The notes beneath the pieces were generated by a model. It was not told the origin of the DNA. It was given only the letters and a program-made list of their open reading frames with translations, and did no database searches. A DNA stretch of 64,000 bases from Candidatus Poriferihabitaceae bacterium. GTDB lineage: Bacteria; Pseudomonadota; Gammaproteobacteria; Arenicellales; Poriferihabitantaceae. The DNA lies in contig OZ251537.1 of the NCBI GenBank assembly GCA_965243285.1, positions 570,387 to 634,386 on the forward strand, given 5' to 3'. Position numbers and translations under genes: made by a program. Shown in pieces: positions 4,372 to 23,817 of the stretch (the first letter of the stretch is position 1; each line of letters opens with the position of its first letter).

Positions 4372-5454
4372 TTACTTATTAGATTTTCGGCGGTTGCATT
4401 CCTTGCACAGCATTTGGCAATTTTCTTCGCTGGTTTTACCGCCTTCTGACCATGGCGTTACATGGTCGCCTTCCATATTATCTATGACGAACTGTTTTTT
4501 GCATTTTGGGCAATTCCCTTGTTGTTTTTCATACACTTTTTGTTTCATAGAATCGGTAAACGCCCGAAGGGACAGATGTTTTTCATCACGGGTTAAAATA
4601 TACGGATAAATGCCGCTAAGTTTTTTTACATCATCATCGGCGATCAATTTAGCGGTTTCTTTTTCTATCGCCTCTGGATCATGTTTTTTATCATGGCATT
4701 GGCGATATAGCGTTCCCCAATCCACCCCCTTCATGGGCTTTCTATAGGTAGTAAAAATCGCCTCCACCCATTCGATAACATCATTAAAATAGCCCCATAA
4801 TTCCAGGGCATTGTCATCGTGCTGGTGTTCGCCCATATAGGATTCTATTTTCCCATCGGACAGCCATTTGATAGCCGTTTCTAAATATTCTTGGCGAGAT
4901 GCGGCGCCTTTCAAATATTTTCCACCATTATCTTGAGCGGGGCAGTTGCTTTTACTAAAATAGGTTTTCGCATGAGTCACCCAAGAGCCTGAATAAACTG
5001 CATTTCTTAATTCTTGGTTTGTGAGTTCTTCGCCCGCTATATTAATCGTCTTAAACCAATTCAGTTTTTCGCTATCGGTTCCGCTACAAAAATAAACCAT
5101 CAATTTGTAGTTGAGAATTCCGACTTTCTCGTCATTTTGCAGGTTATGAAAACTTCTATCTTCAAAAGAAAATTTACGATTGACATACTGGCAAATCGAA
5201 ATAGTTCGCTGCTGTCCATCAATGATTTCATAATCGCCATCCTCCCGAACCGCCCAATACATAACATTGAGCGGGAAATCATTGATGACGGTGTTTATAA
5301 CAGCGTCTCTTTGTTTGCCGGTATAAATAAATTCGCGTTGATAGGGCGGGCGAATATCTAGCTTGCCACCATACCCGACCACGCCATCATCACCGCTGTC
5401 CTTATATCCGGCAACCAAATCTTTAACCGAAATTGCCTTTAGTTTGATTTTCAT
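4372..5454 (-). CDS. DUF262 (ParB-like/GmrSD N-terminal) + C-terminal HNH nuclease
   Basis: DGQQRTISI motif of DUF262. C-terminal CPKC...GDHVTPWSEGGKTSEENCQMLCKECNRRK is an HNH/zinc-ribbon. Start taken at MKIKLKAISV (5454), which overlaps the upstream MTase stop as ATGA. Confidence 0.8.
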   Translation of the reverse strand: MKIKLKAISVKDLVAGYKDSGDDGVVGYGGKLDIRPPYQREFIYTGKQRDAVINTVINDFPLNVMYWAVREDGDYEIIDGQQRTISICQYVNRKFSFEDRSFHNLQNDEKVGILNYKLMVYFCSGTDSEKLNWFKTINIAGEELTNQELRNAVYSGSWVTHAKTYFSKSNCPAQDNGGKYLKGAASRQEYLETAIKWLSDGKIESYMGEHQHDDNALELWGYFNDVIEWVEAIFTTYRKPMKGVDWGTLYRQCHDKKHDPEAIEKETAKLIADDDVKKLSGIYPYILTRDEKHLSLRAFTDSMKQKVYEKQQGNCPKCKKQFVIDNMEGDHVTPWSEGGKTSEENCQMLCKECNRRKSNK

Positions 5455-5711
5455 AGCATTTTGTTTTTGATGATAATGCGCCTGTATTTTGGCTTGCCAT
5501 TTATATCGGGGCCGCGACCTCGCCATTTAGGATATTCCATCCTATGGTCGTCCATCCCCAAGATATCAAATTGCTCGTGGTTGTATTTATCCATAAAACT
5601 AATGGGCACCCCCATAGCCCCTTTATAGTCCTTAGGGATGTATTCTGTTTTATCGACATTGATAGCGTCGTAGTTGTCATATTTTTGGTATTCCTCTCGA
5701 CTATATTTTCT
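5451..5711 (-). pseudogene. C-terminal fragment of an M.EcoRI-family N6-adenine DNA methyltransferase
   Basis: ...YSREEYQKYDNYDAINVDKTEYIPKDYKGAMGVPISFMDKYNHEQFDILG...KYRRIIIKNKML parallels the M.EcoRI C-terminus (SSYPKYDNYDAINVNKTKDIPLDYNGVMGVPITFLHKFNPEQFELI...YFRILIKNKRLQK). The upstream part is replaced by MITE sequence at 5712. Confidence 0.85.
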
Positions 5712-5912
5712 GGGGGGAGTCAAATCAGGCGGCTTTATCGCCTGATTTGGTGGGGGGCTGTTGATGTTGGTCTTTTTGTTTTTGGCTTTTAAATCTTCAA
5801 CTCATTAGCATTAATGAGGGGCAAGGTAAAAAGCAACAGCCAAGTCAAAAGCGAAAAGCCAAAACCAACCCCAACCCCAAACCCACCGTGCAGATTTAGG
5901 TATATAAATCCC
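5712..5912 (-). mobile_element. MITE half-copy (left arm with left TIR), truncated at an internal hairpin
   Basis: In reverse complement it starts GGGATTTATATACCTAAATCTGCACGGTGGG and ends ...CCTGATTTGACTCCCCCC. The outer flank at 5913-5920 is CTTAATTT when read in element orientation. Confidence 0.85.
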
Positions 5913-5948
5913 AAATTAAGCGTGTTATCCAAAATATTGCTACATTGA

Positions 5949-6215
5949 TTAGGGTTTAGCCATTTCTTTTGTGCCAGTAGGAATGGTGGAATTAAAAGAC
6001 GCAATCATATAACTCATGCTATCTTTTAATTTCACCAACTCGCCGTCGCTGAAAACACCGCCACGATTTATTTTAATGGCTAAATCGGGAAACATGCCCT
6101 TGCTCCTACACGACAGTAAACTGGTTTTATACGGGAATTTTTCAAGATTTTTTAAATCGCCAAAGTGCTTTTTTTGGGCGATTAAATCGGCAAAAAAATG
6201 GTAAATGGAATACAT
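5949..6215 (-). pseudogene. degraded ORF downstream of the PF01555-type MTase (possible cognate endonuclease remnant)
   Basis: About 89-aa ORF starting 12 bp after the MTase stop, AT-rich. It terminates about 35 bp before the MITE. Readable continuations exist only in other frames. The function call is inference from gene position. Confidence 0.3.
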
Positions 6216-6227
6216 GGCAATCAACCC

Positions 6228-7120
6228 TCAAGCGCTAAGAATATCCAGCGGCATGGGCGCGCCCCATATTATTTTTAATCCAGGGGTAAACACATAGTCA
6301 TTATAATAATCGCCAACGCAATCTCCGGCGCAGATATCATGCAGACGCGATTTTATGCACGCTACATTTTTTTTATCCAACTCAATGCCAATGTATTTGC
6401 GCCCGAGTTGTTTGGCTACGGTTAATGTAGTGCCTGTGCCGGCGAATGAATCTAACACTATATTATTATACTTAGATGACGATAAAATAATTCTCAACAG
6501 CAACGCAACTGGCGCCTGTTGTTTGTGAAACCGCGCGCCATCGGTTTGGCGAATGGCCTCTTTGCCGGCGAAAAACCCAGAAGTCAACTCTCTTATATCA
6601 TCCCAAACATCGGTCACGAAAATTCCATTTTCGCGTTTGAATTTATAATTCGCTGGCGGTTCTGGGTTTATTCGCAACCGATTAAAAATATTTGCCTTTG
6701 CGCCCTTGGTTGCATACACGATTACTTGATATTGCTTGCCGAATTTGCACGCCACCGGCACCGCTGAAGTTTTCTTTCGCCAAATAATTAAATTTTGGAA
6801 AGTCCAACCGGTTTCGCGCAATATGGTCATCACAAATTCAGCATTTTTTCGCGCTGCATAAAATAAATCGCGCCACCTGCCGTTGTGCAAGCGTAAATAT
6901 GTTGGCAAACATCCCGCATCATCCGCCCGTATTTTTCATCCTCCATTGCATCGTCATGCTTGGCATATTCCTGGCCTTGATTAAAGGGCGGGTCCATAAA
7001 AGTCAAGCCGATTTGATTGGCCGGCAACTGTTGCAGTCGGTCGCGACAATCGCCCAAATAAATCATGTCGGGGCGGAAGGTATCAAGATTTTTTATATTT
7101 TTCACGGGCCGATTTTTCAT
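6228..7120 (-). pseudogene. DNA methyltransferase (N4/N6, PF01555-like) with a frameshift in a homopolymer
   Basis: N-terminal part MKNRPVKN...LTFMDPPFNQG (motif IV) is in one frame (ends 6830). The rest, ...NAEFVMTILRETGW...LDSFAGTGTTLTVA (motif I), is in another. The frames meet at the T6 run 6844-6849. Confidence 0.75.
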
Positions 7121-7294
7121 GGCGGTTGCTGGAGGTATGTCGGCATGGAAAGCGGCCATACTACCATTAAAACCGCCCGAACGCATAAAACAGACATATA
7201 CAATGTATCCGTAATCATGCATGCGAATGGCGGCCGAATAAACCCGCGCAGCGCATCGATAATGATACCATTGCCGGCGATGGCGACTATAAAA

Positions 7295-8380
7295 ATGATC
7301 CGCGAAACCCGCGAGCTGGCCGAATTCATCGCCGCCGCCACGGCCAGCGGGTGGGCCGCGATGGACACCGAATTTTTGCGCGAGCGCACCTATTCGCCGG
7401 AGTTGTGCCTCATCCAAATCGCCCATGCGGACGCGGCGGCGTGTATCGACCCGCAGGCGGTGGAGGATTTATCGCCGCTCGGCGCGTTGTTGGCCAACCC
7501 CGCCGTGGTCAAAATTTTTCATTCTTGTCGGCAAGATCTCGAGGCCTTGGATACGCGCATGCCGTTGTGCGCCGCGGCGGTGTACGACACCCAGTTGGCG
7601 GCGGCGTTTTGCGGCTACGGCAGCCAAGCGAGCTACGCGGCGCTGGTGGCGGCGGTGTGCGCGGTGCATTTGCCGAAAACCCATACCCGCACCGACTGGA
7701 GTCGCCGCCCGCTATCGGCGGCGCAGTTGCAATACGCTATGGACGATGTCAAATATTTAGCGCCGTTGCGCCGCCACCTCGATGAGCTGCTAGCGCAACA
7801 CGGCCGCCAGCAGTGGCATCGCGATGAATGCGTCGCCGCCGCGCACCCAGCCAACTATCGCCCCGCTGCGGACCCATGGCAACGCTTGAAGGGCCTCGGC
7901 CGCCTCGATACCATGGGCCGCGCTTGCGCCCAGCGGCTAACCGGCTGGCGCGAGCAAAAAGCCCGCGACTGCAACCGACCGCGCGGCTGGATTCTGCCCA
8001 CACCGGCGCTGTTGGCAGTCTGCCGCCAGCGTCCGCGCACCATGGCTATGCTGGCGGAGGTCGACGATCTCAGCCCGGGCATCGTCAAAAACTCGGGGCG
8101 AGACATTTTGAACCTAGTCGAGCGCAGCGCCGCCGATGGTGGCGAAATGCGCGATGATTCCAGCACTCGGCCTGAACCGCTGAGCGCGGAACAACGCCAC
8201 CGCGTGAAAAAAATCATGGACTTGCTGGCGCGCCGGGCGGCGGAGACCGACATCAGCCAAGCGTTATTCGCCAACCGCCGCGAGGTCGAAAACTTCGTGC
8301 GCGGTGATTCCGAGCAGCCATTATTCCACGGCTGGCGCGCCCAACTGGCCGGCGATGAAATTCGCGCCGAGTATTCGTAG
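7295..8380 (+). CDS. rnd: ribonuclease D
   Basis: MIRETRELAEFI...AMDTEFLRERTYSPELCLIQIA (ExoI), HSCRQDLEAL and YAMDDVKYL are DEDDy motifs. Start chosen by alignment logic with E. coli Rnd; the longer ORF upstream overlaps the opposite-strand MTase. Confidence 0.85.
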   Translation: MIRETRELAEFIAAATASGWAAMDTEFLRERTYSPELCLIQIAHADAAACIDPQAVEDLSPLGALLANPAVVKIFHSCRQDLEALDTRMPLCAAAVYDTQLAAAFCGYGSQASYAALVAAVCAVHLPKTHTRTDWSRRPLSAAQLQYAMDDVKYLAPLRRHLDELLAQHGRQQWHRDECVAAAHPANYRPAADPWQRLKGLGRLDTMGRACAQRLTGWREQKARDCNRPRGWILPTPALLAVCRQRPRTMAMLAEVDDLSPGIVKNSGRDILNLVERSAADGGEMRDDSSTRPEPLSAEQRHRVKKIMDLLARRAAETDISQALFANRREVENFVRGDSEQPLFHGWRAQLAGDEIRAEYS

Positions 8381-8640
8381 GCCGGTCGATTATCCACACT
8401 AAGCGGCGGCGTTTTGTCAGTGGCGCCCTCCTTAGCTGGTGAAAATCCACCATCCAATCGGCCACTGAACCCTCGCCGCCCGATACAGCCGCCATCGGCG
8501 TCGATACCTCGTTATCGCATTGATTGAAACCGCGTTGTTTACTAAAATCGGCGGCTTATCGACGCTTAGCCATCGGCGGTTAGCGCATCGGCGCTGGCCA
8601 AAAAATCCCATTCGGTTGGTCTTATGTTTGTTTCAATTTA

Positions 8641-9198
8641 ATGTCAGCGCCCAGCGTCATCATCCTATCCGCGCCTTCCGGAGCCGGCAAAACCAGCCTA
8701 ACGCGAAAATTGGTCGCGCGACGGCCGGATGCGGCGGTGGTGGTTTCCCACACTACCCGCCCGCGGCGCGTTGCCGAAAAAGACGGCGTGGATTATTGCT
8801 TTGTCGACAAAGCGCGCTTCGAAGCGATGATCGCCGAGCGCAGTTTCATCGAATACGCCACCGTGTTCGGTCACTATTACGGCACTTCAGCGCAGGCGAT
8901 AGATGCGCTGATTTCCCGCGGCAAGCATGCTATTTTGGATATCGACTGGCAGGGCGCGCGCGCCGTGCGTCGCCAATATCCCCATGCCCAATCGGTGTTT
9001 GTCATGCCGCCTTCTCTTGGGGTGTTGGAACAACGCCTAAAATCCCGCCGCCAAGACGCCGACGAGGTCATCGCCGGACGCATGCGCGCCGCGCTGGACG
9101 AGATGAACCACCGCAACGAGTATGATCATGTCATCATCAATGATCGATTCGAGCGCGCCCTGGAAAATCTTGAAGCCATCCTGCCGGCGAATGGATGA
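8641..9198 (+). CDS. gmk: guanylate kinase
   Basis: P-loop [11 protein letters not shown], plus HTTRPRR and [12 protein letters not shown] motifs. Confidence 0.9.
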
Positions 9199-9283
9199 TG
9201 GTGCCGATTTATCGATAATGTTTAGCGATAATATTTATCGATGTTTTTTAATGTTTGATAATTTCAATTCCAGGAGAATCAAC

Positions 9284-9745
9284 ATGGCTCGCGTAACCGT
9301 GACTGACTGCTTAGCGCATGTCGACAATCGCTTTCAACTGGTGTTAGTCGCCTCCAAACGGGCGCGGCAACTGATCCTCGGCGCCGAGCCGCTGGTCGAG
9401 AGCAACCGCGATAAACCCACAGTGCTGGCATTGCGTGAAATCGCCGCCGGCCTGGTCGGGCCCTCCATCCTCGATGAGAAACCCATCGTCCCCGAATTGA
9501 GTTTCGACAACGACGAGGAATGGAATGAAAAACTGAATGATGAATTGATCAGTAAATTGAGCGACGAGCTGGAGAATCAACTGGACGACGAGCCGAACGC
9601 CGACGCCGATGCCGACGCCGATGCCGACGCCGATGCCGATGCCGACGCGGAAAGCCACCCGCCGCGCGGCGCATCGCTTGCGGACGATGCCGACCCATCC
9701 ACCGAAACCGCGGCCGCGGGCGAGCCGCCGTTAAGCCGCCGATGA
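9284..9745 (+). CDS. rpoZ: RNA polymerase omega subunit with long acidic C-terminal extension
   Basis: [30 protein letters not shown] is canonical RpoZ. GGAG-containing RBS upstream. gmk-rpoZ-spoT synteny. Confidence 0.9.
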
Positions 9746-9836
9746 AAACATAGCCGGCGCACGCGTCGCCCAAACCCTTGGGCGGCGCGCCCGACGGTTG
9801 GTCGTAGCGGCCGCGGTGGCGGCGCCGCGGGTGCCC

Positions 9837-12062
9837 ATGCAAAAAATCGCCATGCGCGGAATCGCCAGCAGAATCCCCTACCTCAGCCCCAGCCGCCCGG
9901 CGCTTGGCCGCTCTCCCCCTAGCCGAAATCGCATCGGCAAACCGCTGAGCGAACAAGCCGCCATCGACGATCTCATCGGCGAACTGGCGACCTACCTAGA
10001 CGCCGACGCCATCGCCAACATTCGCGAGGCGTGCCAATTCGGCATCGCCGCCCACGCCGGGCAAGTGCGCGAAAGCGGCGAAGCCTACATCCACCACCCG
10101 CTGGAGGTGGCGCGCATTCTCGGGCAAATGCGCGCCGACGGGCGCACCATCATCGCCGCCATTTTGCACGATGTGGTCGAAGACACCGCCATCACCCTGG
10201 CGCAACTGATGGCGCGCTTCGGCGATGATGTCGGCATGTTGGTGGACGGCGTCAGCAAGGTGGACGAGTTGGAACAGGAATCCAAAGCGCATGCCGAGGC
10301 GGCCTCCTTTCGCAAAATGTTCACCGCCATGTCCACCGATTATCGGGTGATTTTCATCAAATTATCCGACCGCCTGCATAACATGCGCACCCTAGGCTCG
10401 CTGCGAGAGGAGAAAAAACACCGCGTCGCCCGCCAAACCTTGGAGATTTACGCGCCCATCGCCGACCGCCTCGGCATGCGCGAATTGGCGCTGGAGTTGG
10501 CTGATTTAAGTCTGTTTAACTTAGACCCAAAACGCTATCGGGCCATCGCCAAAACCCTCAGCGCCAACTCGCGGCGGCGCCAATCCACCCTCGACGAATT
10601 GTGCGTCCACCTGAAACATGCTTTAAGCAAAGCCGGCCTCGAGGCGCGGGTGCATGGCCGCGAAAAAGAGATTTACAGCATTCATCGCAAGATGCGCCAA
10701 CAACACCTAGCGCTCAAAGATCTCCAGGACATCAACGCCATTCGCGTGGTCACCGAAAATCGCCTGCAGTGTTACCAAGCGCTCGGCATCATCCATCAGC
10801 TCTACAAACCGCGCCCGAGCAAATTCAAAGACTATATCGCCATCCCCAAAGCGAACGGTTATCAGTCGTTACATACCGTGGTCATCGATTCCATCGGGCG
10901 GCCGGTGGAGGTGCAAATCCGCAGCGACATGATGGATAAGGTGGCGAAAAACGGCCTCGCCTCGCACATCATGTATGAGATGGCGGCCACCGGCGAACAC
11001 GCCCCGGAGAAGTTAATGCGCACCGCCATCGATAACATTCTCGAATCGGCGCGCAAATCCCAAGACTTCGAGGAGTATTTCGAGAACTTGAAGGCCGAAC
11101 TGTCGCCGGACGCGGCCTATGTTTTCACTCCCAAAGGCGACATCAAGCGCCTGCCATGGGGCGCCACGGTGCTGGATTTCGCCTATGCGGTGCACACCGA
11201 CATCGGCCAGCGCTGCGTGTCGGCGCGCATCGGCCAACACATCGCCGCCGTGCACCAGGTATTAAAAGGCGGCGAGACCATCGAGATAATCACCTCGCGC
11301 ACCCGCCAGCCGCAAAAAAAATGGCTGAAATACGCGGTCACCTCCAAAGCGCGTTCGTCGATTCGCCATTTTCTCAATCAACAAAACGACAAAGAGGCCT
11401 TCACCCTCGGCCGCAAATTGCTAAAACAAGCGCTGCACGCCCAAGGCTACCGCCGCATGCGCATTCCCAGCGCGCATAAATTGGCGCTGCTGAAACATTT
11501 GCGGGTGGATGATTGGCGACCGTTGGTGCGCGACATCGGCTATGGCAAACGCGTGCCGGGGTTGGTGGCCAAGCAACTCATCGCCGAAAATCGCAGCGCC
11601 ACCGAGGCCGTGCCAACGCCGCCGGCGGCCATGATTATCGAAGGCACCGAGCGCCTGATGGTGACTTTCGCGCATTGCTGCCACCCGATTCCCGGCGACA
11701 AAATCACCGGCATCATGTTAAGCGGCCGCGGCCTCACCGTGCATCGCGCGCAATGCGTAAACCGCAAGGAAATCACCCCCCACATGGAAAATTATCATGA
11801 TTTAGCGTGGGCTGAAAACGCCAAAGGAAAATTCCAAGTGATGTTGCAAGCCGACCTCCACAACCGCCCCGGCGCCATCGCATCCATCAGCAGCGTCATC
11901 GCCCAACACAACTCCAACATTTACAACATCCAACTAGGCGAACCGCACCACGACATCATCAGCGTGCGCCTCGCCATCGAAGTGATCCACCGCCCGCACC
12001 TCGCCGCCATCATGCGTCAACTGCGGCATGAAGATTCCGTCATCAAACTGGCGCGTCCATGA
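9837..12062 (+). CDS. spoT: bifunctional (p)ppGpp synthetase/hydrolase
   Basis: HD hydrolase (HHPLEVARIL...HDVVEDT), synthetase (YIAIPKANGYQSLHT), TGS and ACT regions are collinear with E. coli SpoT. Start codon uncertain (ATG at 9837 or 9852; the ORF opens at 9798). Confidence 0.9.
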   Translation: MQKIAMRGIASRIPYLSPSRPALGRSPPSRNRIGKPLSEQAAIDDLIGELATYLDADAIANIREACQFGIAAHAGQVRESGEAYIHHPLEVARILGQMRADGRTIIAAILHDVVEDTAITLAQLMARFGDDVGMLVDGVSKVDELEQESKAHAEAASFRKMFTAMSTDYRVIFIKLSDRLHNMRTLGSLREEKKHRVARQTLEIYAPIADRLGMRELALELADLSLFNLDPKRYRAIAKTLSANSRRRQSTLDELCVHLKHALSKAGLEARVHGREKEIYSIHRKMRQQHLALKDLQDINAIRVVTENRLQCYQALGIIHQLYKPRPSKFKDYIAIPKANGYQSLHTVVIDSIGRPVEVQIRSDMMDKVAKNGLASHIMYEMAATGEHAPEKLMRTAIDNILESARKSQDFEEYFENLKAELSPDAAYVFTPKGDIKRLPWGATVLDFAYAVHTDIGQRCVSARIGQHIAAVHQVLKGGETIEIITSRTRQPQKKWLKYAVTSKARSSIRHFLNQQNDKEAFTLGRKLLKQALHAQGYRRMRIPSAHKLALLKHLRVDDWRPLVRDIGYGKRVPGLVAKQLIAENRSATEAVPTPPAAMIIEGTERLMVTFAHCCHPIPGDKITGIMLSGRGLTVHRAQCVNRKEITPHMENYHDLAWAENAKGKFQVMLQADLHNRPGAIASISSVIAQHNSNIYNIQLGEPHHDIISVRLAIEVIHRPHLAAIMRQLRHEDSVIKLARP

Positions 12063-12088
12063 CGGAAATTATCAATAGGCTAATTAAT

Positions 12089-12831
12089 GGGATTTATATA
12101 TCTAAATCCGCACGGTGGGTTTGCTTTTGATTTTGGCTTTTGCTTTTGCTTTTGCTTTTGGCTTTTGGCTGTTGATCTTCACTCCCCCCGCTTCATCATG
12201 AGGGGGAGTCAAAACTGGCATCTTTTTCGCCAGTTTTGGTGGGGGGTTTTGATCTGGCTTTCGCTTTTGATGTTGATTTTCGCTTTTCGCTTTTGATTTT
12301 GGCTTTTGCTTTTTTGTTTTTGCCTTTAAATCTTCAACTCATTAGACCAAATGAGGGCAAGTAAAAATCAAAAGCGAAGTCAAAAGCGAAGTCAAAAGCG
12401 AAAAGCAACAGTCCCCCCACCAAATCAGGCGATAAGGCCGCCTGATTTGACTCCCCCCAGATGAAGCACGGGGGGGAGTAAAGCGTTAAAAGCCAAAGCC
12501 AAAAGCAAAAGCCAAAGCAAAAGCCAAAGCCAAAAGCAAAAGCAAAAGCCAAAGCAAAAGCAAAATCAAAAGCTAACATCAAAAGCCAAATCAAAAGCTA
12601 ACATCAAAAGCTAACATCAAAAGCACCCCCCACCAAAACTGGCGATGTAGCCGCCAGTTTTGGCTCCCCCCTAAAAAGATAGGGTGGAGCGAAGCCTTAA
12701 CAGCAACAGCAAAAGCAAAAATCAAAATCAAACGCCAAAATCAAAAGCAAAAATCAAACGCAGCCGCCCTAAATCAGTCGCTGACCTCAAAAAAACGCCA
12801 ATCGAACTGCAGATTTAGGTATATAAACCCC
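12089..12831 (+). mobile_element. full-length MITE-like element (743 bp)
   Basis: Left TIR GGGATTTATATATCTAAATCCGCACGGTGGG. Right end ...CCCTAAATCAGTCGCTGACCTCAAAAAAACGCCAATCGAACTGCAGATTTAGGTATATAAACCCC. T-rich GCTTTT arm, central TTAAATCTTCAACTCATTAG module and A-rich AAAAGC arm. No ORF of coding quality. Confidence 0.85.
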
Positions 12832-13109
12832 AAAACAAAAGCCAAAGCCAAAGCCAAAAAGCAAAAGCCAAGTCAAAATCAAAAGGCCCCCCACCAAAAC
12901 TGGCGAAAAAGCCGCCAGTTTTGACTCCCCCCAGATGAAGCACGGGGGGGAGTAAAGCGTTAAAAACCAAAGCCAAAGCCAAAGCCAAAGCCAAAACCAA
13001 AACCAAAGCCAAAACCCAAAGCAAAAATCAAAGCCAAAGCAAAAATCCAAAAAACAAAATCGCCCCCCCAATAGCAACCTACCAATGGGGATTTAGGTAT
13101 ATAACTCCC
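12832..13109 (+). repeat. MITE-related fragment with variant right end, abutting the previous element
   Basis: AAAAGC-type arm plus a hairpin module, ending ...TAGCAACCTACCAATGGGGATTTAGGTATATAACTCCC. No left TIR. Confidence 0.7.
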
Positions 13110-13139
13110 TAAATTTTCATGGCGGTCTTGCATGAATAA

Positions 13140-14739: not shown

Positions 14740-14850
14740 TCGCTAAACCGACATTTCAGCCAAATTTCAGCCAAATTCGATCAAATTCGACCAAATTTAA
14801 GCGAAATTTACCGAATTTCACCTAAATTCACCGATTTTCCGTCAACTCCA
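14740..14850. repeat. phased A/T-tract array (10-11 bp period)
   Basis: CAGCCAAATTT CAGCCAAATTC GATCAAATTC GACCAAATTTA AGCGAAATTTA CCGAATTTCA CCTAAATTCA CCGATTTT, lying between convergent nagZ and the RND gene. Confidence 0.8.
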
Positions 14851-14867
14851 TCGCCATCCCCGCCACC

Positions 14868-17800
14868 TCACCCCCTTCTCCCCCGCCAAGCCGTACGAAT
14901 GCCCGCGTCGGCATTCTCATACACCAACAACAGCGACGGAATCACAATCAACACCAGCAGCGTGGCGAAGGCCAAGCCGAAGGCGATGGTGGTGGCCATG
15001 GGGATGAGAAATTGCGCCTGCAGCGAGGTTTCGAACAACAGCGGCGACAAGCCGGCGATGGTGGTGAGCGAGGTGAGCAGCACCGCCCGCAGGCGGCGGC
15101 AGGCGGCTTCGATGACGGCTTCGCGCGCCGCCCATCCGCGCCCGCGCAGGCGCTTGTAGAACACCACCAGGATGATGGAATCATTGACCACGATGCCCGA
15201 GAGCGCGAAAAAGCCGAACAGCGACAGCACCGTGACCTCCTGCCCCATCAGCACATGCCCCCACACCGCGCCGACCAAGCCGAACGGGATGACGGCCATC
15301 ACCACCACCGGTAAGCCGTACGAGCCGAACACCCACGCTAATACCAAGTAAATCAGCGCCAACGCCAGCAGCAGCCCGGTCTGCATATCGCCCAAGGTTT
15401 CGGTTTGCTCGGCGGCGCGGCCGCCGAATGAAAATTCCACGCCGTAGCGGTCAGCCAGTTGCGGCAAGATATCGGCCTCGAGGGCGGCGCGGATGCGGCC
15501 GGCGGTAGCGATGGTGTGGTCCACGCTGGCGGTGACGGTGATGCTGAGTTTGCCGTCCACATGCAGAATCGACTCGAAACCGCGCTCGGCGCTTAGGTCG
15601 ACTAAATTGCCTAACGGCGCGGCGTTGCCACCGGGCAGCACGATGGGAACTTGCGCCAAGCCACCCAGGGTGTCGCGCTCGGCCGGCGGCAGCGACACCC
15701 GCACCGTGATATCGCGATAGCCGTCCGACAATTCCAGTGCCTCGTAGCCGGTGTAGGCGGCGCGCAACTGGCGCGACACCTCGTCCACGCTCAGGCCCAG
15801 CGATTCGGCGGTGGGGGTGAGGCGCAGCAGCCATTGTTCGCGGCCATAGGGTGAATCATCGCCGATGCCGTTGACCCCGGGGATGGCCGCCAGCGCCGCC
15901 TGCAGTTGTAGCGCGGCCTTTTTTACCCGGGCGAGGTCGGGGCCGGAGATTTCGAGGTCGATATCCCGCCCCGGCGGGCCGGCTTGGGGTTCTAAGATAG
16001 CCAGGCTCTCGAGGCCCGGCCGCGGCGGCAGTTTGCTTTGCCAGGCGGCAATTAAATCTCGATTGCGGGTGTTTCGTTGGTCGGAATCCACCAACTCGAC
16101 GCGCACCCGGCCGGTGTGTTCGCCGTGGTGATGCAGCAATATCATGGCGATGAATGGTTCGCCGGATTCGGCCTCGATTTCGCCCATGGCGGCGGCCGCT
16201 TGCGCCAAATAATCGGTCACCGTGTCCGGCGGCGTGCCGGCCGCAAAACCGACTTGCGCGTATACCTGATTGCCCTCGCCCAACGGAAAAAAATGGAAGC
16301 CGATGCGCCCGGCTTGCATCCAGCCGAAGGTGAGGATGAGCGCCGCCGCCGCCGCCGCCAAAGTACTCCAGCGATGCCGCACCGCCAGGGTCAGCAGCGG
16401 GCGAAACCACGCCTCGCGAAATTGCGCGAAGGCGGCATCCAAAGCGCGTCGGGCGCGTTTTGGGCGATATTCGCCCAGGCTGCGAAAGGAATGCGTCAGA
16501 TGCCCCGGCAAAATCAAAAAACACTCGACCAGCGAAGCCACAATGATGCAAATCACCACCGTTGGAATCGCCCGCATGATGGTGCCGATGATGCCGCCCA
16601 CCAGCAGCAGCGGCATGAAGGCGGCGATGGTGGTCAGCGACGATGCGCACACCAGTCCGAGCATGCGGCGCGCCGCTTTCTCCGAGGCCGCGCTGGGCGC
16701 GGCGCCGCGTTCGTATTGCGACATGGCTTCCTCGCCCACCACGATGGCGTCGTCTACGATGATGCCGAGCGCCATAATCATGCCGAACAGGCTGATCATG
16801 TTGAGCGAGCCGCCGACCAAATACAGCGCCGCCATGGCGCCCATAAAGGACACCGGAATGCCCACCGCGGTCCACCACGCCACCCGCCCGTTCATAAATA
16901 AAAACAGGATCAACACCACCAACAATAGGCCGCCGAGGCCGTTTTTCAGCAATAGGTCGATGCGCTCGCGCAGCAATTCCCAGCTTTGGTTGTACGGCAA
17001 CAGCGCCACGCCCGGCGGCAAAGTCGGGCGCGTCTCGCGCAGCCAGTCGCTGAAAATAGTGGCGGCCTCGAGGCTGTCGCCGCCGGCGGCGCGGCGCAAC
17101 GACATACGCACTGCCGGGCCGCCGTTATGGGTGATGGTGGGCTGGCCGGTGGCCGCTTTGCGCTCGATGTGGGCGATGGAACCTAAGCTCAGCAGCCGCC
17201 CACCGGAGGCCGCCACCGGCACCGATTCGAACGCCAGCGCGGTTTGCCGGCGCTCGCGAAAACGCAGCTGCCGCGACACTTCGGCCTGCCCGACCACGCC
17301 CACCGGCGCGTCCTTCGACCACGCCGCCACCCGCCGCCCGATAGCGTCCAGCGACAGCCCCAGCCGGCGCAGCTGGTGGGATGGGATTTCGATGGCGATT
17401 TCCTCCTTCGGCAGCCCGGTGATTTGAATCGAGGCGATGCCGCGCGCCAGCAATTCGCGCTCAAAGCGCCGCACTAACGGGCGCAAATCATCGATATCGG
17501 CCGGCCCGGCGACCAGCAAACTGGCGATCTCCTCGTAATTTTGCAGCTGAGCGACGCGCGGCCGTTCGCTGCCCTCGGGCAAACCGCTGGCGGCATCCAC
17601 CTGCGCCTTGACGCGCGCCACCGCCAGTTCGATGTCGGCATCTTCGGCAAATTCTAAGGTGATGCGCGAATTCGCCTCGCTGGAGGTCGAGGTGATGCGT
17701 TTGACCGCATCGATGGCGCGCAAATCTTGCTCCAGCGGGGTGGTGATCAGGGCCTCGATATCGCCGGCGCTGGCGCCGCGCCACAGCGTGGTAACCGACA

Positions 17801-17980
17801 CCCTATCGACGCTAAAACTGGGGAAAAACTGGGTGTTGAGTTGCTTTACGCCCCAAACCCGGCCAGCAGCAACATCGCCATCAATAAATTCGCCGCCACC
17901 GGATGGTTGCAGAAAATGCCGAGCAAGCCGCCTCGGCTGGTGGCGCCGGCCTGGTCTTCGGTCTGGCGTGGCTCGCTCAT
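14868..17980 (-). pseudogene. RND (AcrB/HAE1-like) efflux transporter, N-terminal TM1 in a different frame (frameshift or sequencing error)
   Basis: The 1048-aa ORF has RND 12-TM architecture, but its first ~55 aa are Arg-rich nonsense. The true N-terminus MSEPRQTEDQAGATSRGGLLGIFCNHPVAANLLMAMLLLAGFGA is read from ATG 17980 and hits TAA at 17846-17848. The frames meet at the G-run near 17850-17860. Confidence 0.8.
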
Positions 17981-18213
17981 GGCGTCGTCCGTGGCGCGTC
18001 CATGTCCATGGCATCGCGCGGCGGCGTCATACGACGGTCATCACAACCGAAGCGGTGATGATTAATTAAGGTGCCGATGGTCGACATGTAATAGGTTTAA
18101 TCGAGGTACTGCCGTGGCCGGCAAAACGCCATCGCACGCCCTAAAAGTTGGGCCGGGAATGCCGCGCAAATTGCCGCTCATGCTCATGCGCATGCTGCTC
18201 GCCGACCTCCACA

Positions 18214-19515
18214 TTACCGCGCCACCCGCACTTTCAAGCCGTCCACGGCTTGCGGCAGGCGCGAGTTCAGCACTTGGTCGCCGGCCGCAAAAGCTGCGGC
18301 GGCGATGATCAATTTAGGCGGCCCGGCGCCGTCATGCACCAGCCCCAAGCGGCGCACCTCGATGGCTTGCAAAACGCCATCGCGCACCCGAAAAACTCGG
18401 TCGTTGCCGTATAGCGAATCGGTCGGCAACAGCACCACATTGTCGACCGGCGGCAATTCCAGATGCATCTCCAGCGCCTCGCCCAGCGCCGGCAGCGGCC
18501 CTTGGGCGACGCGGAAAAACCCATCGATGCCGCTTTGCCCGGCCACCACATTGGCCGCCAAACGGTGCAGCGTCAGGGTGATAGCGGCGCCGTTGGCATC
18601 GGCGGCGGCGGTCACCGCCTGGCGCGCATCGACCGCCTGGCGCAAGGCCGGCAGATGCGCGGCCGGCACTTGGGCCCGCACTTCGAGCTGGGAATCATCG
18701 TACATGCGCAGCAGCGGGCTGTTGGGCGCGACGCGATCGCCCTCGGATACCAGCACCTCGAGCACGCGCCCGGTGAATGGCGCCAACACGCGGCTTCGCG
18801 CTTGGGCGCGCTCGGCTTGTTTGAGGGCCGCGGCGGCGCGCTGGCGACGCGCTTGCAATTGGCGGCGGCGGGCGCCGGCCTCGTCGATGGCCAAGCGGCG
18901 TTTGGCTAAATCCAACAGGCGGCGTTGTTCCACCTCGCGGGTTTGGTCTAACGCGGCCTCGCTGCCGGCTTGGGTGCGCGCCAGTTGCTCGGCGCGCTGC
19001 ACGGCGCGGCGCGCCAGGGCGAGCAGGGCTTGCTCCGCCTGCAGCGCGGTTTGGTCGGCTTGTAGTCGAATGTGGTCGCTGTCGATGCGCGCCGCCGCTT
19101 CGGCCAGCTCGCTGCGGCGCTGCAAGACCACCAGCGCCGCATCGGCGTCGTCCAACACCATCATCTCTTGCCCGCGTTGCACGGCGGCGCCTTCGAGGGC
19201 TTTGATGGCGACGACATCGGCCTCGATGCCAGCCGTCAGCACGCTGGTGCGCGGCGATTCCACCTGCCCAAAAACCCGCAGCATGGGCGAGGCGGTGGTC
19301 GGCGACACCACCTGCACCGATACCACCGGCGCCCGGTCTGCGCTCGGCGGCGCCGGCGGCGGCTCGCCGGTGGCCGAAAATAGCGCCACCGCCACCGCGG
19401 CCAGCAACAGAATCAACAGCGGCACGCCGATTTTTCGCAACCACTTTTTGGCGTCGAGCTTGGTTAATCGACTGGTGTTGCGCCAGGATGATTCGGGCAT
19501 GGGTTTTGGCGGCAA
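18214..19515 (-). CDS. efflux membrane-fusion (HlyD/periplasmic adaptor) protein
   Basis: N-terminal TM anchor, long Ala/Arg/Gln coiled coil, then ...VLAPFTGRVLEVLVSEGDRV. Lies directly upstream of the RND pump. Confidence 0.8.
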   Translation of the reverse strand: MPPKPMPESSWRNTSRLTKLDAKKWLRKIGVPLLILLLAAVAVALFSATGEPPPAPPSADRAPVVSVQVVSPTTASPMLRVFGQVESPRTSVLTAGIEADVVAIKALEGAAVQRGQEMMVLDDADAALVVLQRRSELAEAAARIDSDHIRLQADQTALQAEQALLALARRAVQRAEQLARTQAGSEAALDQTREVEQRRLLDLAKRRLAIDEAGARRRQLQARRQRAAAALKQAERAQARSRVLAPFTGRVLEVLVSEGDRVAPNSPLLRMYDDSQLEVRAQVPAAHLPALRQAVDARQAVTAAADANGAAITLTLHRLAANVVAGQSGIDGFFRVAQGPLPALGEALEMHLELPPVDNVVLLPTDSLYGNDRVFRVRDGVLQAIEVRRLGLVHDGAGPPKLIIAAAAFAAGDQVLNSRLPQAVDGLKVRVAR

Positions 19516-19543
19516 TATCCGCGGTGTTTTCTAGCAAAAGTTA

Positions 19544-19590
19544 GGGCGTTATATACCTAAATCCGCACGCGCGGTTTGCTTTATCCGCAT
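19544..19590 (+). repeat. solo MITE left-end remnant
   Basis: GGGCGTTATATACCTAAATCCGCACGCGCGGTTTGCTTT resembles the left TIR plus the start of an arm. No partner end. Confidence 0.55.
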
Positions 19591-19768
19591 CGACTGCCCG
19601 GTCCGCATCACTAAAAATAAAACTTAAAAGATTAACTAAACCACCATGGCAACCCGACGGAAAACACCACCCCATTTAAGCGGATTTAAGCCAGCAACTC
19701 CCCTGAATTAAAGCATGCCAAATTTTTAACCACGCCATTGTTGCATCGACTTATATAACGCAAAAGAA

Positions 19769-19843
19769 TGGATTTATATATCTAAATCAGCCGCTGACCT
19801 CAAAAAAACGCCCATCGAACTGCAGATTTAGGACTATAAATCC
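19769..19843 (+). mobile_element. 75-bp minimal MITE derivative
   Basis: TGGATTTATATATCTAAATC joined directly to AGCCGCTGACCTCAAAAAAACGCCCATCGAACTGCAGATTTAGGACTATAAATCC. Flanked by identical GCAAAAGAA at 19760-19768 and 19844-19852. Confidence 0.8.
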
Positions 19844-20079
19844 GCAAAAGAACATGGTTTTAATCGACCGTGGCGATGCGGTTTTAAGCGGCGCTGCTGG
19901 GCGGTGATGGTTACGCCGGATGAAACGATGCCGATTTTTCGCTTGCCGGCTAGTGCCATGGCGGCCCAATCACATCGACCATCGCCATCATCGCCATTCA
20001 CCAACCCGGCATTTCCTGCGCCATTCGAAGCAGCGGCGGCATTATACAATACGCCGAGCCGCCGCTTAAATATCAGCCC

Positions 20080-20706
20080 ATGCCCGCCGCCGCCATCGAC
20101 CGCTACCTGCAACCCTTCGCTGGCCGTCGGGTTACGTTGCTCGGGCCGATGCTGACCGCGACGCCGCCGCGCCGCGCCCTCGAGGAACCGTTGATTTGGG
20201 TGGATGGCGGCGCCGACTTTTCGGCCGGACACGGCGGTTTGTCGGTGGGCGATGGCGATTCGGCGCGCCGCCCATTGCAACAACGCTTGCCGGCGAACAA
20301 AGATTATTCCGATTTGGCTTATGTGTTGCGGCGCTTGCCGGGGAATTTTCGCGAGGTAGTGTTGCTCGGTTTTCTCGGCGGGCGGCGCGACCATGAGCTC
20401 TTCAATTTCGGCGAAGTGCACCACTTTTTGGCCGCGAAAACGCACACCCAGGCGCGCTTCGAACGCGCCGCTTACGGCTATTCCCAAGGCGAGTGGCGCT
20501 TTTGCGCGCATGGCGTGTTCAGCCTGGCGACCTTTGCGGCGACCACGGCGACGCTGCTCGGGGCGTGCGAATTCCCCTTATCGACGCCCACCGAAATCCG
20601 GCCGCTCACTTCCTTAGGCTTGAGCAATCGCGGCTACGGCGACATCACCTTGCGCGCCCACGGGCCGGTTTTCATCTTCCACCCGAACGGCGCTTCGGCT
20701 GAATAA
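20080..20706 (+). CDS. thiamine pyrophosphokinase-like protein
   Basis: GDGDS, KDYSDL and GGRRDHE motifs in the order seen in TPK enzymes. Confidence 0.55.
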   Translation: MPAAAIDRYLQPFAGRRVTLLGPMLTATPPRRALEEPLIWVDGGADFSAGHGGLSVGDGDSARRPLQQRLPANKDYSDLAYVLRRLPGNFREVVLLGFLGGRRDHELFNFGEVHHFLAAKTHTQARFERAAYGYSQGEWRFCAHGVFSLATFAATTATLLGACEFPLSTPTEIRPLTSLGLSNRGYGDITLRAHGPVFIFHPNGASAE

Positions 20707-20761
20707 TTTGCCCCGCCCTGATTCGCTGCCGCCCTGATTCGCTGCCGTCTTGATTCGCGCC

Positions 20762-21652
20762 ATGCCCGATTTATTCGACTTCGCCGCCCCATCCAATCAC
20801 TTTGCGGTGCTGGGCAATCCGGTTGCGCACAGCCAATCGCCGCGCATCCACCAATTATTCGCCCAGCAGTTCGCCCTCGACCTCGACTATCGCCGCATCC
20901 AAGTCGATGTCGGCGGTTTTGCCCAGGCGGTCAGCCACTTTGCCGCCCACGGCGGCGCCGGGCTGAATATAACCCTGCCGTTCAAGGTGGAGGCGTGGCG
21001 GTTGTGCCGTCAGCCAGGCAACCAGATGAGCGACCGGGCCGGCCGCGCCGAGGCCGTCAATACATTGCGGTTCGCGCCCGACCAGAGCGTGTTCGGCGAC
21101 AACACCGATGGCATCGGCATGCGCCGCGACCTCGAAAACAACCTCGGCCTCGCCATCGCCGGCAAGCATGTGCTGCTGTTAGGCGCTGGCGGGGCGGCGC
21201 GTGGCGTGCTCGGGCCCTTGGCGCAGCGCCGCCCGGCCAGCCTGCGCATCGCCAATCGCACCGCCGATAAAGCGCAGGCGCTGGCGGCGCGCTTCAGCCT
21301 CGCCGGCGAACACGGCGACTCCCAGCCGGTGCGCGGCTACGGCTACCAGCGGCTCGCCGATGCGGCGCCCGACTGGCCGGCTTTTGACCTCGTCATCAAC
21401 GCCTCGGCCGCCAGTTTGGCCGGTGAACTGCCGGATTTGGGCGCCCTGCGCCTGGCCGCCGATAGCCTCGCCTATGATTTGATGTACGCCGCCGAGCCCA
21501 CCGTATTCATGCGCTGGGGGCAAGCCCATGGCGCGCGTTTGGTCAGCGACGGGCTGGGCATGTTAGTGGAGCAAGCGGCCGAGTCATTTAATCTATGGCA
21601 TGACCGACGCCCGGATTCGGCCGCGGTGATTCGCGCCTTGCGGGGCGTTTGA
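20762..21652 (+). CDS. aroE: shikimate dehydrogenase
   Basis: FAVLGNPVAHSQSPRIH, NITLPFK, NTDGIG and GAGGAARG motifs. Confidence 0.85.
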   Translation: MPDLFDFAAPSNHFAVLGNPVAHSQSPRIHQLFAQQFALDLDYRRIQVDVGGFAQAVSHFAAHGGAGLNITLPFKVEAWRLCRQPGNQMSDRAGRAEAVNTLRFAPDQSVFGDNTDGIGMRRDLENNLGLAIAGKHVLLLGAGGAARGVLGPLAQRRPASLRIANRTADKAQALAARFSLAGEHGDSQPVRGYGYQRLADAAPDWPAFDLVINASAASLAGELPDLGALRLAADSLAYDLMYAAEPTVFMRWGQAHGARLVSDGLGMLVEQAAESFNLWHDRRPDSAAVIRALRGV

Positions 21653-21706
21653 AATCCTGCCGGCATCGAAATCCCCCCTTATATCCTTCGAAAATTCGCG
21701 CAGCCC

Positions 21707-22678
21707 ATGTCGATTTCCTCGCCGACTTCCCGGCCGACCGCCCCATCGCGCCCGCGCGCCTTGGGCCGCCCGCTGCCGGGCAACGCCCTGGTCATCGCGA
21801 TTTCATCGCGCGCCTTGTTCGCCCTCGAAGACAGCCATGCGGTGTTCGAGAAACAAGGGCTGGCGGCGTACGCCCGCTATCAAATCGAGCATGAAAACGA
21901 ACCTTTGGCGGAAGGCGTGGCGTTTTCCATGGTCAAGAAATTTCTCGCCCTCAACGACGACCATCGGCAAGCGGTGGAGGTGGTGCTGATCTCGAAAAAC
22001 AGCGCCGACACCGGCCTGCGGGTGTTCAATTCCATCGCCCATTACGGCTTGAATATCAGCCGCGCCGCGTTCACCGGCGGCCAATCGCCCTACCCCTACG
22101 CGCGCCCCTTCGGCGCCGATTTATTTTTGTCCGCCGACCAGCAGGATGTGGCGCGCGCTTTGGAATCCGGCATCGCCGCCGCCACCATCTTGCCGTCGCG
22201 GGTGGACGCCGCCGCCTCGCCGCAGCTGAAAATCGCCTTCGACGGCGACGCGGTGCTGTTTTCCGATGAGGCCGAGCAAGTTTTTCAGCGCCACGGTCTG
22301 CAAGCCTTCTCCGACACCGAAAAAAACGCCGCCGAGCGCCCGCTGTCCAGCGGCCCGTTCAAAAATGTACTCAACGCCTTGCACCTCATCCAGCAAAACT
22401 ACGCCGCCGAAGAATCCCCGCTTCGAACCGCCTTGATCACCGCCCGCTCGGCCCCGGCGCACGAACGCGTCATCAAAACCCTACGCGCCTGGGATATCCG
22501 CATCGACGAAAGCTACTTCTTAGGCGGCATGGACAAAGGCGAATTCCTACGTGCCTTCGGCGCCGACATTTATTTCGACGACCACCGCGGCCACTGCGAC
22601 TCAGCCCGCCAACATGTACCCACCGCCCATGTCCCGCACGGCATCGTCAATGAAAAAGATTCCGCCGACAAGGTCTAA
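21707..22678 (+). CDS. 5'-nucleotidase-like HAD-type protein
   Basis: Recalled similarity to the bacterial 5'-nucleotidase family (IAISSRALF..., KIAFDGDAVLFSDEAE DxD-type motif). Not verified by search. Confidence 0.5.
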   Translation: MSISSPTSRPTAPSRPRALGRPLPGNALVIAISSRALFALEDSHAVFEKQGLAAYARYQIEHENEPLAEGVAFSMVKKFLALNDDHRQAVEVVLISKNSADTGLRVFNSIAHYGLNISRAAFTGGQSPYPYARPFGADLFLSADQQDVARALESGIAAATILPSRVDAAASPQLKIAFDGDAVLFSDEAEQVFQRHGLQAFSDTEKNAAERPLSSGPFKNVLNALHLIQQNYAAEESPLRTALITARSAPAHERVIKTLRAWDIRIDESYFLGGMDKGEFLRAFGADIYFDDHRGHCDSARQHVPTAHVPHGIVNEKDSADKV

Positions 22679-22752
22679 AATATTGGGTATAATCGCGCCA
22701 TCGACGATATGCTGATTGCATCCAATTCAACCAAAACATCGAGACCACCGCC

Positions 22753-23488
22753 ATGACATCGCAAAACCAAAACCTCAGAAAAGCGAAAAAAGCCAAAAGT
22801 GATGAGTTTTATACTCAACTCGCTGATATTTAAAAAGAATTAAATCACTATGAAAGTCACTTTGCCGGCAAGGTGGTGTATTGCAATTGCGACGACCCCG
22901 CGCGAGTAAATTTTTTCATTATTTTTCATACAACTTTGAACATTTGAAACTTAAAAAACTGGTTACGACCTGCTATAAAAGCCAACATCGTGATTTATTA
23001 AGTAAGCATGATTCAGAAAAAGCAATTTACTTGCACTATGATGGATTTAAGAAAGGGGAAGTGGTGCCAGACCCAGAGGATATTGGCATAAACCATTTGG
23101 AAAGCGACGGCGACTTCCGCAGTGATGAATGTATCGAGTTGTTAAAACAAGTCGATATTGTGGTTACTAACCCGCCGTTTTCACTGTTCCGCGAATATGT
23201 CGCCCAGCTGATTGAACATAATAAAAAATTTCTAATTATAGGAAATATGAATGCTGTAACCTATAAGGAAATTTTTAATTTAATTAAACAAAATAAATGC
23301 TGGTTCGGGCCGAGTATCCACAGTGGGGATAGAGAATTTGGAGTTCCCAATGAGTACCCGCTAAACGCCGCCAATAGTAGGGTTGATGATAATGGCAACA
23401 AATACATTAGAGTCAAAGGAGTTCGTTGGTTTACAAATTTAGACTATAAAGAGCGCCACGAAAATTTATTCCTTTATAAAAAAAGTAA
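22753..23488 (+). pseudogene. N-terminal ~245 codons of an M.EcoRI-family N6-adenine DNA methyltransferase (nonsense + frameshift + truncation)
   Basis: MTSQNQNLRKAKKAKSDEFYTQLADI-TAA(22831)-KELNHYESHFAGKVVYCNCDDPARVNFF, frame change in the T6 run 22911-22916, then HYFSYNFEHLKLKKLVTTCY...DIVVTNPPFSLFREY...WFTNLD...LFLYKK. Collinear with M.EcoRI (AKKSKSDEFYTQ..VVYCNCDDPRVSNFFKYFAVNF..GLKKLIASCY..IVVTNPPFSLFREY). Fused to MITE sequence at 23489. Confidence 0.85.
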
Positions 23489-23617
23489 GGGGGAGTAAAA
23501 CGTTAAAAGCAAAAGCAAAAGCCCAAAAGCAAAAACAAAAATCAACCGCAACCCCCTAACTCAGCCGCTGACCTCAAAAACCGCCAATCTAACTGCAGAT
23601 TTAGGTATATAAATCCC
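23489..23617 (+). mobile_element. MITE half-copy (right arm with right TIR)
   Basis: Starts GGGGGAGTAAAACGTTAAAAGC and ends ...CTCAGCCGCTGACCTCAAAAACCGCCAATCTAACTGCAGATTTAGGTATATAAATCCC. The outer flank at 23618-23625 is CTTAATTT. Confidence 0.85.
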
Positions 23618-23817
23618 CTTAATTTCATTGTGCCGTTGCACATCTGATGCAGATGAGGAACTTATTTATGAAAAAGCACGGTTAATTTTTGATAACAATC
23701 ATTTTGCCGAGATAAAAAAACTTAAAATAAAACATCATTTTAACGGCTGGTTTTGTGTCTTCCAAGTCGGTCTATGAACAACCCGCTCATCCATCCACCC
23801 GACCAGGCTATAAAAAC

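Follow-up and report, generated by a model that had tools for sequence, protein, structure and literature searches.

A probable 17.8-kb inversion with breaks in a small-repeat hairpin and a DNA methylase gene of a Candidatus Poriferihabitaceae bacterium

Breakage at the centre of a palindrome followed by end-joining gives rise to the human palindromic AT-rich repeat (PATRR) translocations (PMC4940405), and interrupted palindromes in Escherichia coli undergo SbcCD-dependent processing (PMC3315005). Inversions associated with the transposons Galileo and BuT5 in Drosophila have been recognised by their exchanged target-site duplications (PMC2775673, PMC3698922), IS26-type inversion proceeds by intramolecular replicative transposition (PMC10501869), and genome rearrangements linked to restriction-modification are known (Furuta, Abe and Kobayashi 2010, PMC2853133). 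Here we analyse a 64,000-nucleotide stretch of DNA (the window, whose positions are used throughout) from a Candidatus Poriferihabitaceae bacterium (contig OZ251537.1, positions 570,387 to 634,386), in which the two halves of an M.EcoRI-family methylase gene lie far apart, each fused to one half of a miniature inverted-repeat transposable element (MITE). The arrangement very probably results from a single chromosomal inversion of about 17.78 kb, with two non-homologous breaks rejoined in flipped orientation.

The closest analogues appear to be the palindrome-centre breaks joined without homology and the SbcCD-processed palindromes. As in those systems, one break falls within the loop at the apex of a strong hairpin, a few nucleotides of the tip are lost, and the ends are joined without homology. 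The locus differs in that only one partner is palindromic, the other break falling in a plain run of A, and in that the stem is short (9 bp, 12-nt loop) and the event is a bacterial intrachromosomal inversion known from sequence alone. With Galileo and BuT5 it shares the target-site duplication as a forensic marker of sites once adjacent and now distant; the Drosophila inversions are reported to arise by ectopic recombination of two copies or by aberrant transposition of element ends, whereas here a single copy is broken mid-element and joined to unique DNA. The resemblance to IS26-type inversion is that a short inversion is bounded by mobile-element sequence and the target duplication is split between its ends, but the IS26 process leaves two complete inverted copies and this locus has two complementary halves and no second copy. 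As in restriction-modification-linked rearrangements, both breaks lie inside modules flanking a core-gene block, and a methylase is inactivated. Nothing here, however, shows restriction cleavage or module mobility as the cause of the breaks, and with restriction-modification remnants so frequent in this genome, the link may be a coincidence. The event is a known kind of rearrangement, an illegitimate inversion, and no new kind of system; it is a clean example of its kind.

The methylase gene provides one marker of the ancestral order. Profile match, translation and homologues place its N-terminal fragment at 22753-23484 on the plus strand, where about 245 residues end in the A-run at 23478-23484 (...RHENLFLYKK / ...DYKERHENLFLYKK) before the frame enters SKGE and a stop codon. 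The C-terminal fragment, at 5451-5709 on the minus strand, reads (K)YSREEYQKYDNYDAINV...IIIKNKML to its stop codon and aligns to homologues from about residue 243/247 to the end; read from slightly further out, the minus strand of 5723-5451 translates as LTPP-RKYSREEYQKYDNYDAINV...IIIKNKML and stop. Concatenated, the two fragments cover positions 1-345 of the 345 in the Pfam profile EcoRI_methylase (PF13651) in a single stretch (E=8e-134; 446.8 bits versus a cut-off of 26.4), and the NPPF catalytic motif is present as DIVVTNPPF. At the position of the joint, 11 full-length homologues read ...LYKKY[ST]PEEYPKYDNYDAINV. The closest database homologues are 324-346 amino acids long and at most 74% identical. 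In one of them (P0003) the N fragment matches residues 5-246 (74%) and the C fragment residues 247-328 (77%), and in another (P0004) the matches span 3-242 and 243-324. The identities of the fragments to common homologues are equal, at 73-77%, and P0002-P0004 match both at contiguous residues; the fragments are thus two halves of one gene and not two paralogues. A preliminary description of this locus had the pieces meeting at one residue and named descent from different paralogues as what would overturn it; the alignment leaves neither gap nor overlap in the protein, and the same homologues match both pieces. Compared with its homologues, the N fragment also has one GAA codon changed to a TAA stop (nonsense codon, 22831-22833) and lacks one nucleotide of a Pro codon near 22897-22900. 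With its halves 17.8 kb apart and these two lesions, the methylase has no intact open reading frame (ORF), and the gene is a pseudogene. The nonsense codon, the frameshift and the operon with a nuclease gene, described below, are points absent from the preliminary description.

The MITE provides a second marker. Its 23-nt terminal inverted repeat (TIR), GCAGATTTAGGTATATAAATCCC, has 14 matches in the window versus 0 expected by chance. Copies of the element are multicopy, non-coding and 76-743 bp long, and consist of hexamer satellites and hairpin modules. Left-type ends carry ...CCCACCGT ahead of the TIR and right-type ends ...CCAATCGAACT, and true elements have one of each. A left arm lies reversed at 5710-5912 (minus strand) and consists of a loop remnant AG (5710-5711), a C6 stem, an 11-bp hairpin (5721-5749), satellites and a TIR at 5890-5912. 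A right arm at 23489-23617 (plus strand) consists of a G5 stem, AGTAAAACGTTAAAAGC, satellites and a TIR at 23595-23617, and the two TIR copies are identical. The left-arm signature (..CCCACCGT plus TIR) is found reversed at 5712-5912 and the right-arm signature (..CCAATCTAACT plus TIR) at 23489-23617. Towards the breaks, the left arm has CCTGATTTGACTCCCCCC reversed at 5712-5729 and the right arm has GGGGGAGTAAAACGTTAAAAGC at 23489-23510. Nothing but AGATGAAGCACG lies between CCTGATTTGACTCCCCCC and GGGGGAGTAAA.CGTTAAAAGC in three intact copies, which bears out the proposal that the two arms adjoin each other in intact elements but for the loop. When the arms are joined and compared with one intact copy (62457-62940, reversed), a single 291-column high-scoring segment pair crosses the joint. 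At the centre of intact copies an 11-bp hairpin precedes a 9-bp G/C hairpin whose loop has 12 nt, and the central hairpin folds with a free energy of -22.5 kcal/mol (z = -7.2 versus shuffles).

The target-site duplication and the host gene into which the MITE inserted provide the third marker. The outer flank of the left arm (5913-5920, minus strand) is AAATTAAG on the plus strand and CTTAATTT in element orientation; the outer flank of the right arm (23618-23625, plus strand) is again CTTAATTT. Among the 91 pairs of TIR ends in the window, 8/8 flank identity occurs in four, namely three intact elements and this pair lying 17.7 kb apart, so that the flanks had rightly been taken as the duplication of one insertion: such a match is found for true partner ends only. 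The duplicated 8-mers are AT-rich and differ by copy (TAAATAAA, TAAATAAG, CAAAAGAA and CTTAATTT, all 8/8), with one further pair at 7/8. The 8-mer lies in a gene of a nuclease-like family with full-length members of about 270-300 amino acids (about 275) and 116 representatives, for which searches of Pfam, PADLOC, NCBIfam and PDB sequences all gave no match. The N-terminal side of this gene is found at 5913-6224 (minus strand), with residues 1-88 at 6215-5955 in the ORF at 5949-6224 and residues of about 212-228 at 5959-5913, ending in the 8-mer, and with about 120 codons deleted internally. By tblastn and a profile hidden Markov model, its C-terminal end was placed at 23626-23777 (plus strand), which reads IVPLH, a frameshift near 23641, then at 23640-23777 TSDADEEL...HHFNGWFCVFQVGL and a stop codon, and corresponds to homologue residues of about 231-278.

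The empty site was rebuilt by joining the reverse complement of 5921-6300, one CTTAATTT and the sequence from 23626 onward. The reading 'LNPNQCSNILDNT LNF IVPLH' then spans the joint and matches 'LNPNQYPEIGDNTLNFAVPCH' in one homologue (P0437; 71% over 21 amino acids). With a profile built from 45 homologues of the family, the rebuilt site with exactly one copy of the 8-mer scores 12.2 bits across the joint, against -2.1 bits with no copy, 2.0 bits for the unreconstructed left half and -2.0 bits for the unreconstructed right half. Homologues align over the rebuilt site only if exactly one copy is kept. The 8-mer at 23618-23625 encodes the L-N-F of a conserved DNTLNF motif, and CTTAATTT is therefore host coding DNA and not part of the element, the other possibility named as one that would overturn the reading. 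The alignment across the joint also agrees with the earlier placing of the degraded ORF at 5949-6215 in line with the remnants at 23626-23735. Next to the remnant lies an N6_N4 DNA methylase gene (6228-7130, minus strand; the upper boundary, about 7130, was read from the ORF translation), frameshifted near 6830-6908, in which positions 3-218 of the 221 in the Pfam profile N6_N4_Mtase are covered only after joining two frames. In two other contigs (L089 and L090) a member of the nuclease-like family comes immediately after a methylase with 61% identity to window 6228-6908, and by this gene order the 6228-7130 methylase, as the upstream partner, and the nuclease-like remnant are a second restriction-modification-like pair, now decayed.

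Both reciprocal junctions are present, the C-terminal methylase part with the left arm at junction 1 and the N-terminal part with the right arm at junction 2. On the minus strand, junction 1 reads ...GACTCCCCCC, then AG, then AAAATATAGTCGAG..., where the loop begins with AG and the methylase sequence takes up again with 3-4 A. Junction 2 reads ...CCTTTATAAAAAA(A) GTAA GGGGGAGTAAAACG..., the methylase gene stopping in its A-run, and the GTAA (23485-23488, plus strand) has no counterpart in the gene or in the loop of the listed intact copies. The stem at junction 2 has 5 G versus up to 7 in intact copies. The MITE was thus broken in the 12-nt apical loop of the 9-bp G/C hairpin, with only AG of the loop kept on one side, and the methylase within the AAAAAA of codons K-K at about residue 245. 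In sum, the hairpin apex has lost about 11-12 nt, filler amounts to 4-5 nt, and 3-4 A occur at both junctions. The methylase break is not palindromic; near it lies a single inverted repeat, a weak one of 16 nt with 75% complementarity and a spacing of 50 nt. The junction regions, compared up to 300 nt from the breaks, have in common only the 24-nt TIR, over 100 nt off, and a stem of 8 nt, which makes homologous recombination and repeat-driven misassembly implausible. The un-inverted joins, when rebuilt, read GAAAATTTATTCCTTTATAAAAAATATAGTCGAGAGGAATACC and ...GACTCCCCCCAGATGAAGCACGGGGGGGAGTAAAACG....

These results uphold the preliminary description, including its non-homologous breakpoints and its argument against repeat-mediated misassembly, and refine it at the junctions. 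Re-inverting about 5710..23484 restores the methylase frame at the break, the colinearity of the MITE and the nuclease-like gene. The two-fragment split of the methylase stands, with junction 1 placed 2 nt further left, AG (5710-5711) belonging to the MITE loop and GTAA (23485-23488) being filler. The claim that re-inversion restores the MITE holds for the colinearity of the arms with intact copies and fails for the hairpin apex, of which about 11-12 nt are missing. The block was said to carry rnd-gmk-rpoZ-spoT, nagZ, the RND pump and aroE, and Pfam agrees: core genes at 7292-22678 (plus strand) encode RNase D, guanylate kinase, RpoZ, SpoT, an L,D-transpeptidase, NagZ, a thiamin pyrophosphokinase (TPK)-like protein, AroE and a 5'-nucleotidase, with the RND pump and its membrane-fusion protein on the minus strand inside the block.

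On the inversion reading, the sequence shows the following order of events. Before the inversion, an operon of the M.EcoRI-family methylase and a GmrSD_N-HNH nuclease lay directly downstream of the 5'-nucleotidase gene, and the other end of the block contained the already decaying N6_N4 methylase and the nuclease-like gene of about 275 amino acids. A MITE of 340-350 bp had inserted into the 3' remnant of the latter, duplicating CTTAATTT. One break then occurred in the apical loop of the MITE hairpin and the other in the A-run of the methylase, with reciprocal rejoining. The tip of the hairpin or cruciform may have been cut by a structure-specific nuclease, for example one of SbcCD or Mre11 type, or may have broken at stalled replication; the break in the A-run may have been staggered and filled in; and the four ends may have been joined through end-joining or a microhomology or template-switch process. 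As a consequence, the methylase was destroyed, the intact nuclease gene severed from its upstream DNA, the presumed place of its promoter, and the block of RNase D, gmk-rpoZ-spoT to aroE and the 5'-nucleotidase flipped.

Comparison with relatives places the block in its genomic setting. The nearest relatives in the protein database, which are metagenome genomes of Arenicellales, Candidatus Spongiihabitans or Poriferihabitaceae type, reach at most 83% (5'-nucleotidase) and 66% (RNase D) amino-acid identity. Seven loci (L001-L006 and L083) share the colinear run gmk-rpoZ-spoT-ykuD-nagZ-(RND)-TPK-aroE-5'-nucleotidase. Beyond the 5'-nucleotidase lie lysA, argH, aroB, aroK and mrcA in relatives, and around RNase D lie mpl, mltA, aspartate aminotransferase, rpsU, gpmI and rph. 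In two loci (L081 and L082) a different restriction-modification pair lies directly downstream of the 5'-nucleotidase gene, the same position as the rebuilt EcoRI-family operon. Synteny breaks off at both ends of the compared blocks, which points to extensive reshuffling in the lineage. At window 6899-9198 RNase D lies directly upstream of gmk; in L084 and L085 it lies between mpl and mltA-aspAT-rpsU-gpmI-rdgB-rph.

Several observations weigh against the inversion or leave its account incomplete. The restoration is imperfect, with part of the loop missing, filler present and two further lesions in the methylase. No close relative in the protein database searched shows the un-inverted order, and the flanking genes of relatives named above have no homologue anywhere in the 64-kb window in either arrangement, so that the inversion is not polarised by outgroup synteny. 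The genes of the block are co-oriented with the left flank in the present arrangement, and strand bias therefore gives no sign that the block is derived. Raw GC skew, being driven by codon usage, does not flip at either junction. In nearly all genes, of either orientation, the coding strand has a negative third-position GC skew (C > G); because it tracks the coding strand, raw skew here reports gene direction and not replication direction. The strand-specific third-position skew obtained by regression is -0.11±0.05 inside the block, where it depends on two minus-strand genes, and +0.03±0.03 outside (p=0.015), a weak hint in support of the inversion. The enzymology of breakage and joining is wholly inferred.

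Most of the remaining doubt about the inversion lies with a possible assembly artefact. The block might be flipped in the assembly only, through a chimeric join or a collapsed strain variant, with a full-length methylase and an intact MITE in the chromosome. This would suit a repeat-rich genome that appears as one contig of 2.79 Mb, has no second member in the protein database and belongs to a set whose other contigs bear metagenome-assembler style names. Each junction, however, joins unique coding sequence directly to half a repeat, a product that a repeat-mediated misjoin cannot yield from regions with so little sequence in common. The presence of both reciprocal junctions also speaks against it, and the loss, filler and short duplication fit biological breaking and joining and not a clean swap bounded by repeats; we regard an artefact as unlikely. 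The idea that the methylase pieces are truncated paralogues with no connection to each other, that the partial MITEs are likewise unrelated, and that both pairs only appear complementary has some footing in this genome, which has many incomplete or degenerate repeat modules and several methylase genes in decay, and in the different best matches of the N fragment (P0005, 78%) and the C fragment (P0003, 77%). The probability of such independent events is next to nil, as P0002-P0004 match both fragments with equal identity at contiguous residues, one left-type and one right-type arm carry identical TIRs and 8/8 flanks, and the flanking host gene is also restored over the joint. Three base-exact coincidences are not credible by chance, and this explanation is effectively refuted.

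A rearrangement catalysed by an enzyme, whether aberrant or alternative transposition by the transposase of the MITE, intramolecular replicative transposition or a site-specific invertase, and possibly programmed or reversible, is also very unlikely. The gene breakpoint TATAAAAAATATAG is AT-rich like the preferred 8-bp targets of the element (TAAATAAA, TTTTTTAT, CAAAAGAA), and a short duplication (3-4 A) is found at both junctions. But the duplication is 3-4 nt and not 8, the element is broken at its centre and not at a TIR, and each TIR still has its original flank. The locus has a single left arm and a single right arm that complement each other, in place of two full inverted copies, and inverted recombination sites are absent at the junctions. 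The window ORFs that were examined gave no transposase or recombinase, and the larger ORFs scanned within 1-28 kb, a part of the total there, gave no recombinase domain. A metagenome scan for the TIR gave 8 low-GC contigs; in the sole one with ORFs listed (L091), no obvious transposase was found. The single inversion through two non-homologous breaks is thus the explanation we favour.

With the inversion as favoured, both junctions are readable to the base and three independent markers record the ancestral order, which helps in studying how bacterial chromosomes break and rejoin, in particular the fragility of hairpin tips and the filler and duplication left at junctions. The apical loop of the MITE hairpin could be a recurrent fragile site whose breakage drives the extensive gene-order shuffling between this sponge-associated Arenicellales-like lineage and its relatives, an idea we consider doubtful. 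Compatible with it, 4 of the 14 TIR ends are unpartnered and every compared synteny block ends at a different neighbour; against it, a single hairpin-tip break is documented. The region 36990-37190 was considered as a second hairpin-tip break or half-element and rejected, its upstream sequence being a variant repeat module. If the fragile-site idea were true, the inversion would be a caught-in-the-act bacterial counterpart of the human palindrome-centre rearrangements at PATRRs.

The nuclease partner of the split methylase is an intact gene of 363 amino acids at 4372-5463 (minus strand), with Pfam GmrSD_N and HNH domains and a full-length match to PADLOC REase_II (E=1e-132). Its ATG overlaps the methylase stop codon (ATGA), which makes it the downstream operon partner. 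In two unrelated contigs (L087 and L088) a 73%-identical EcoRI-family methylase is followed by a nuclease 58% identical over its full length to the product of 4372-5463. The reading frame is full length and free of disabling mutations despite the destroyed methylase partner, which raises the question of how a cell tolerates an orphan nuclease gene; the nuclease may be silent, inactive or shielded by another methylase. Nearby, window 2538-4314 (plus strand) encodes an AAA ATPase (PADLOC HEC-01A, 3e-119) and a DUF4276-like protein (HEC-01B, 4e-44), and this pair and the nuclease gene form a small low-GC defence island.

Further defence genes are found along the window, and they add, with the proliferating small repeats, to the picture of a symbiont-type genome with decaying defence genes. 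At window 38332-39758 (plus strand) an N6_N4 methylase fragment (profile positions 124-220 of 221) precedes a truncated MvaI/BcnI-family nuclease (1-136 of 227), and the two are a third decayed restriction-modification pair. Orthology of this MvaI/BcnI module at 38-40 kb with the pair beside the 5'-nucleotidase gene in L081 and L082 was considered and rejected, as the identity is 42% over a short stretch and the methylases are unrelated. At 45590-50032 (minus strand) a single chain of 1481 amino acids combines Mrr_cat_2, ResIII/helicase, N6_Mtase and Eco57I domains; by domain content, not family match, the predicted enzyme resembles Type ISP restriction-modification enzymes, and the third-position GC content of its gene is below that of its neighbours. 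An MT-A70-family methylase fragment (profile positions 1-80 of 172) lies between two MITE copies at 61815-62501 (plus strand), its frame entering the MITE that starts at 62457.

The repeats themselves show further variety. A 76-bp mini-element at 19769-19844 consists of hardly more than two TIRs and the right-arm core, with a perfect 8-bp duplication, CAAAAGAA, and shows how small a mobilisable unit can be. The four TIR ends at 12089, 12809, 13087 and 19544 have no partner with a matching 8-bp flank, and the composite at 12089-13109 contains left-type, right-type and third-type ends in a row; the unpartnered ends may stem from nested insertion or mark other rearrangements. None of the 83 loci retrieved from relatives contains the TIR. 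Its 20-nt core, the near-palindrome GGATTTAGGTATATAAATCCC, also ends a different repeat (...ggcagtaagggttt...) in three low-GC metagenome contigs from other samples (L091, L094 and L097), with no obvious transposase between the two core copies in L091. Throughout the window, intergenic hexamer-type satellites (AAAAGC, AAAGCC, CAACAG, CAACAT) are mixed with hairpin modules like repetitive extragenic palindromes, of the form CCCCCCACCAAA.C.GGCG...CGCC.G.TTTG.CTCCCCCC, which occur with and without TIRs; examples of such satellite and hairpin regions are 12120-13044, 24459-24539, 25403-25943, 34576-34682, 37024-37179, 45216-45379 and 62527-62814. An Rfam search gave no match to the repeats, and its match elsewhere in the window was RNase P RNA only. 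This bacterial class A RNase P RNA (28307-28663, minus strand; 330 bits, full length) lies immediately beside a (TTGCTG)n satellite and a degenerate end of a MITE (28075-28290).

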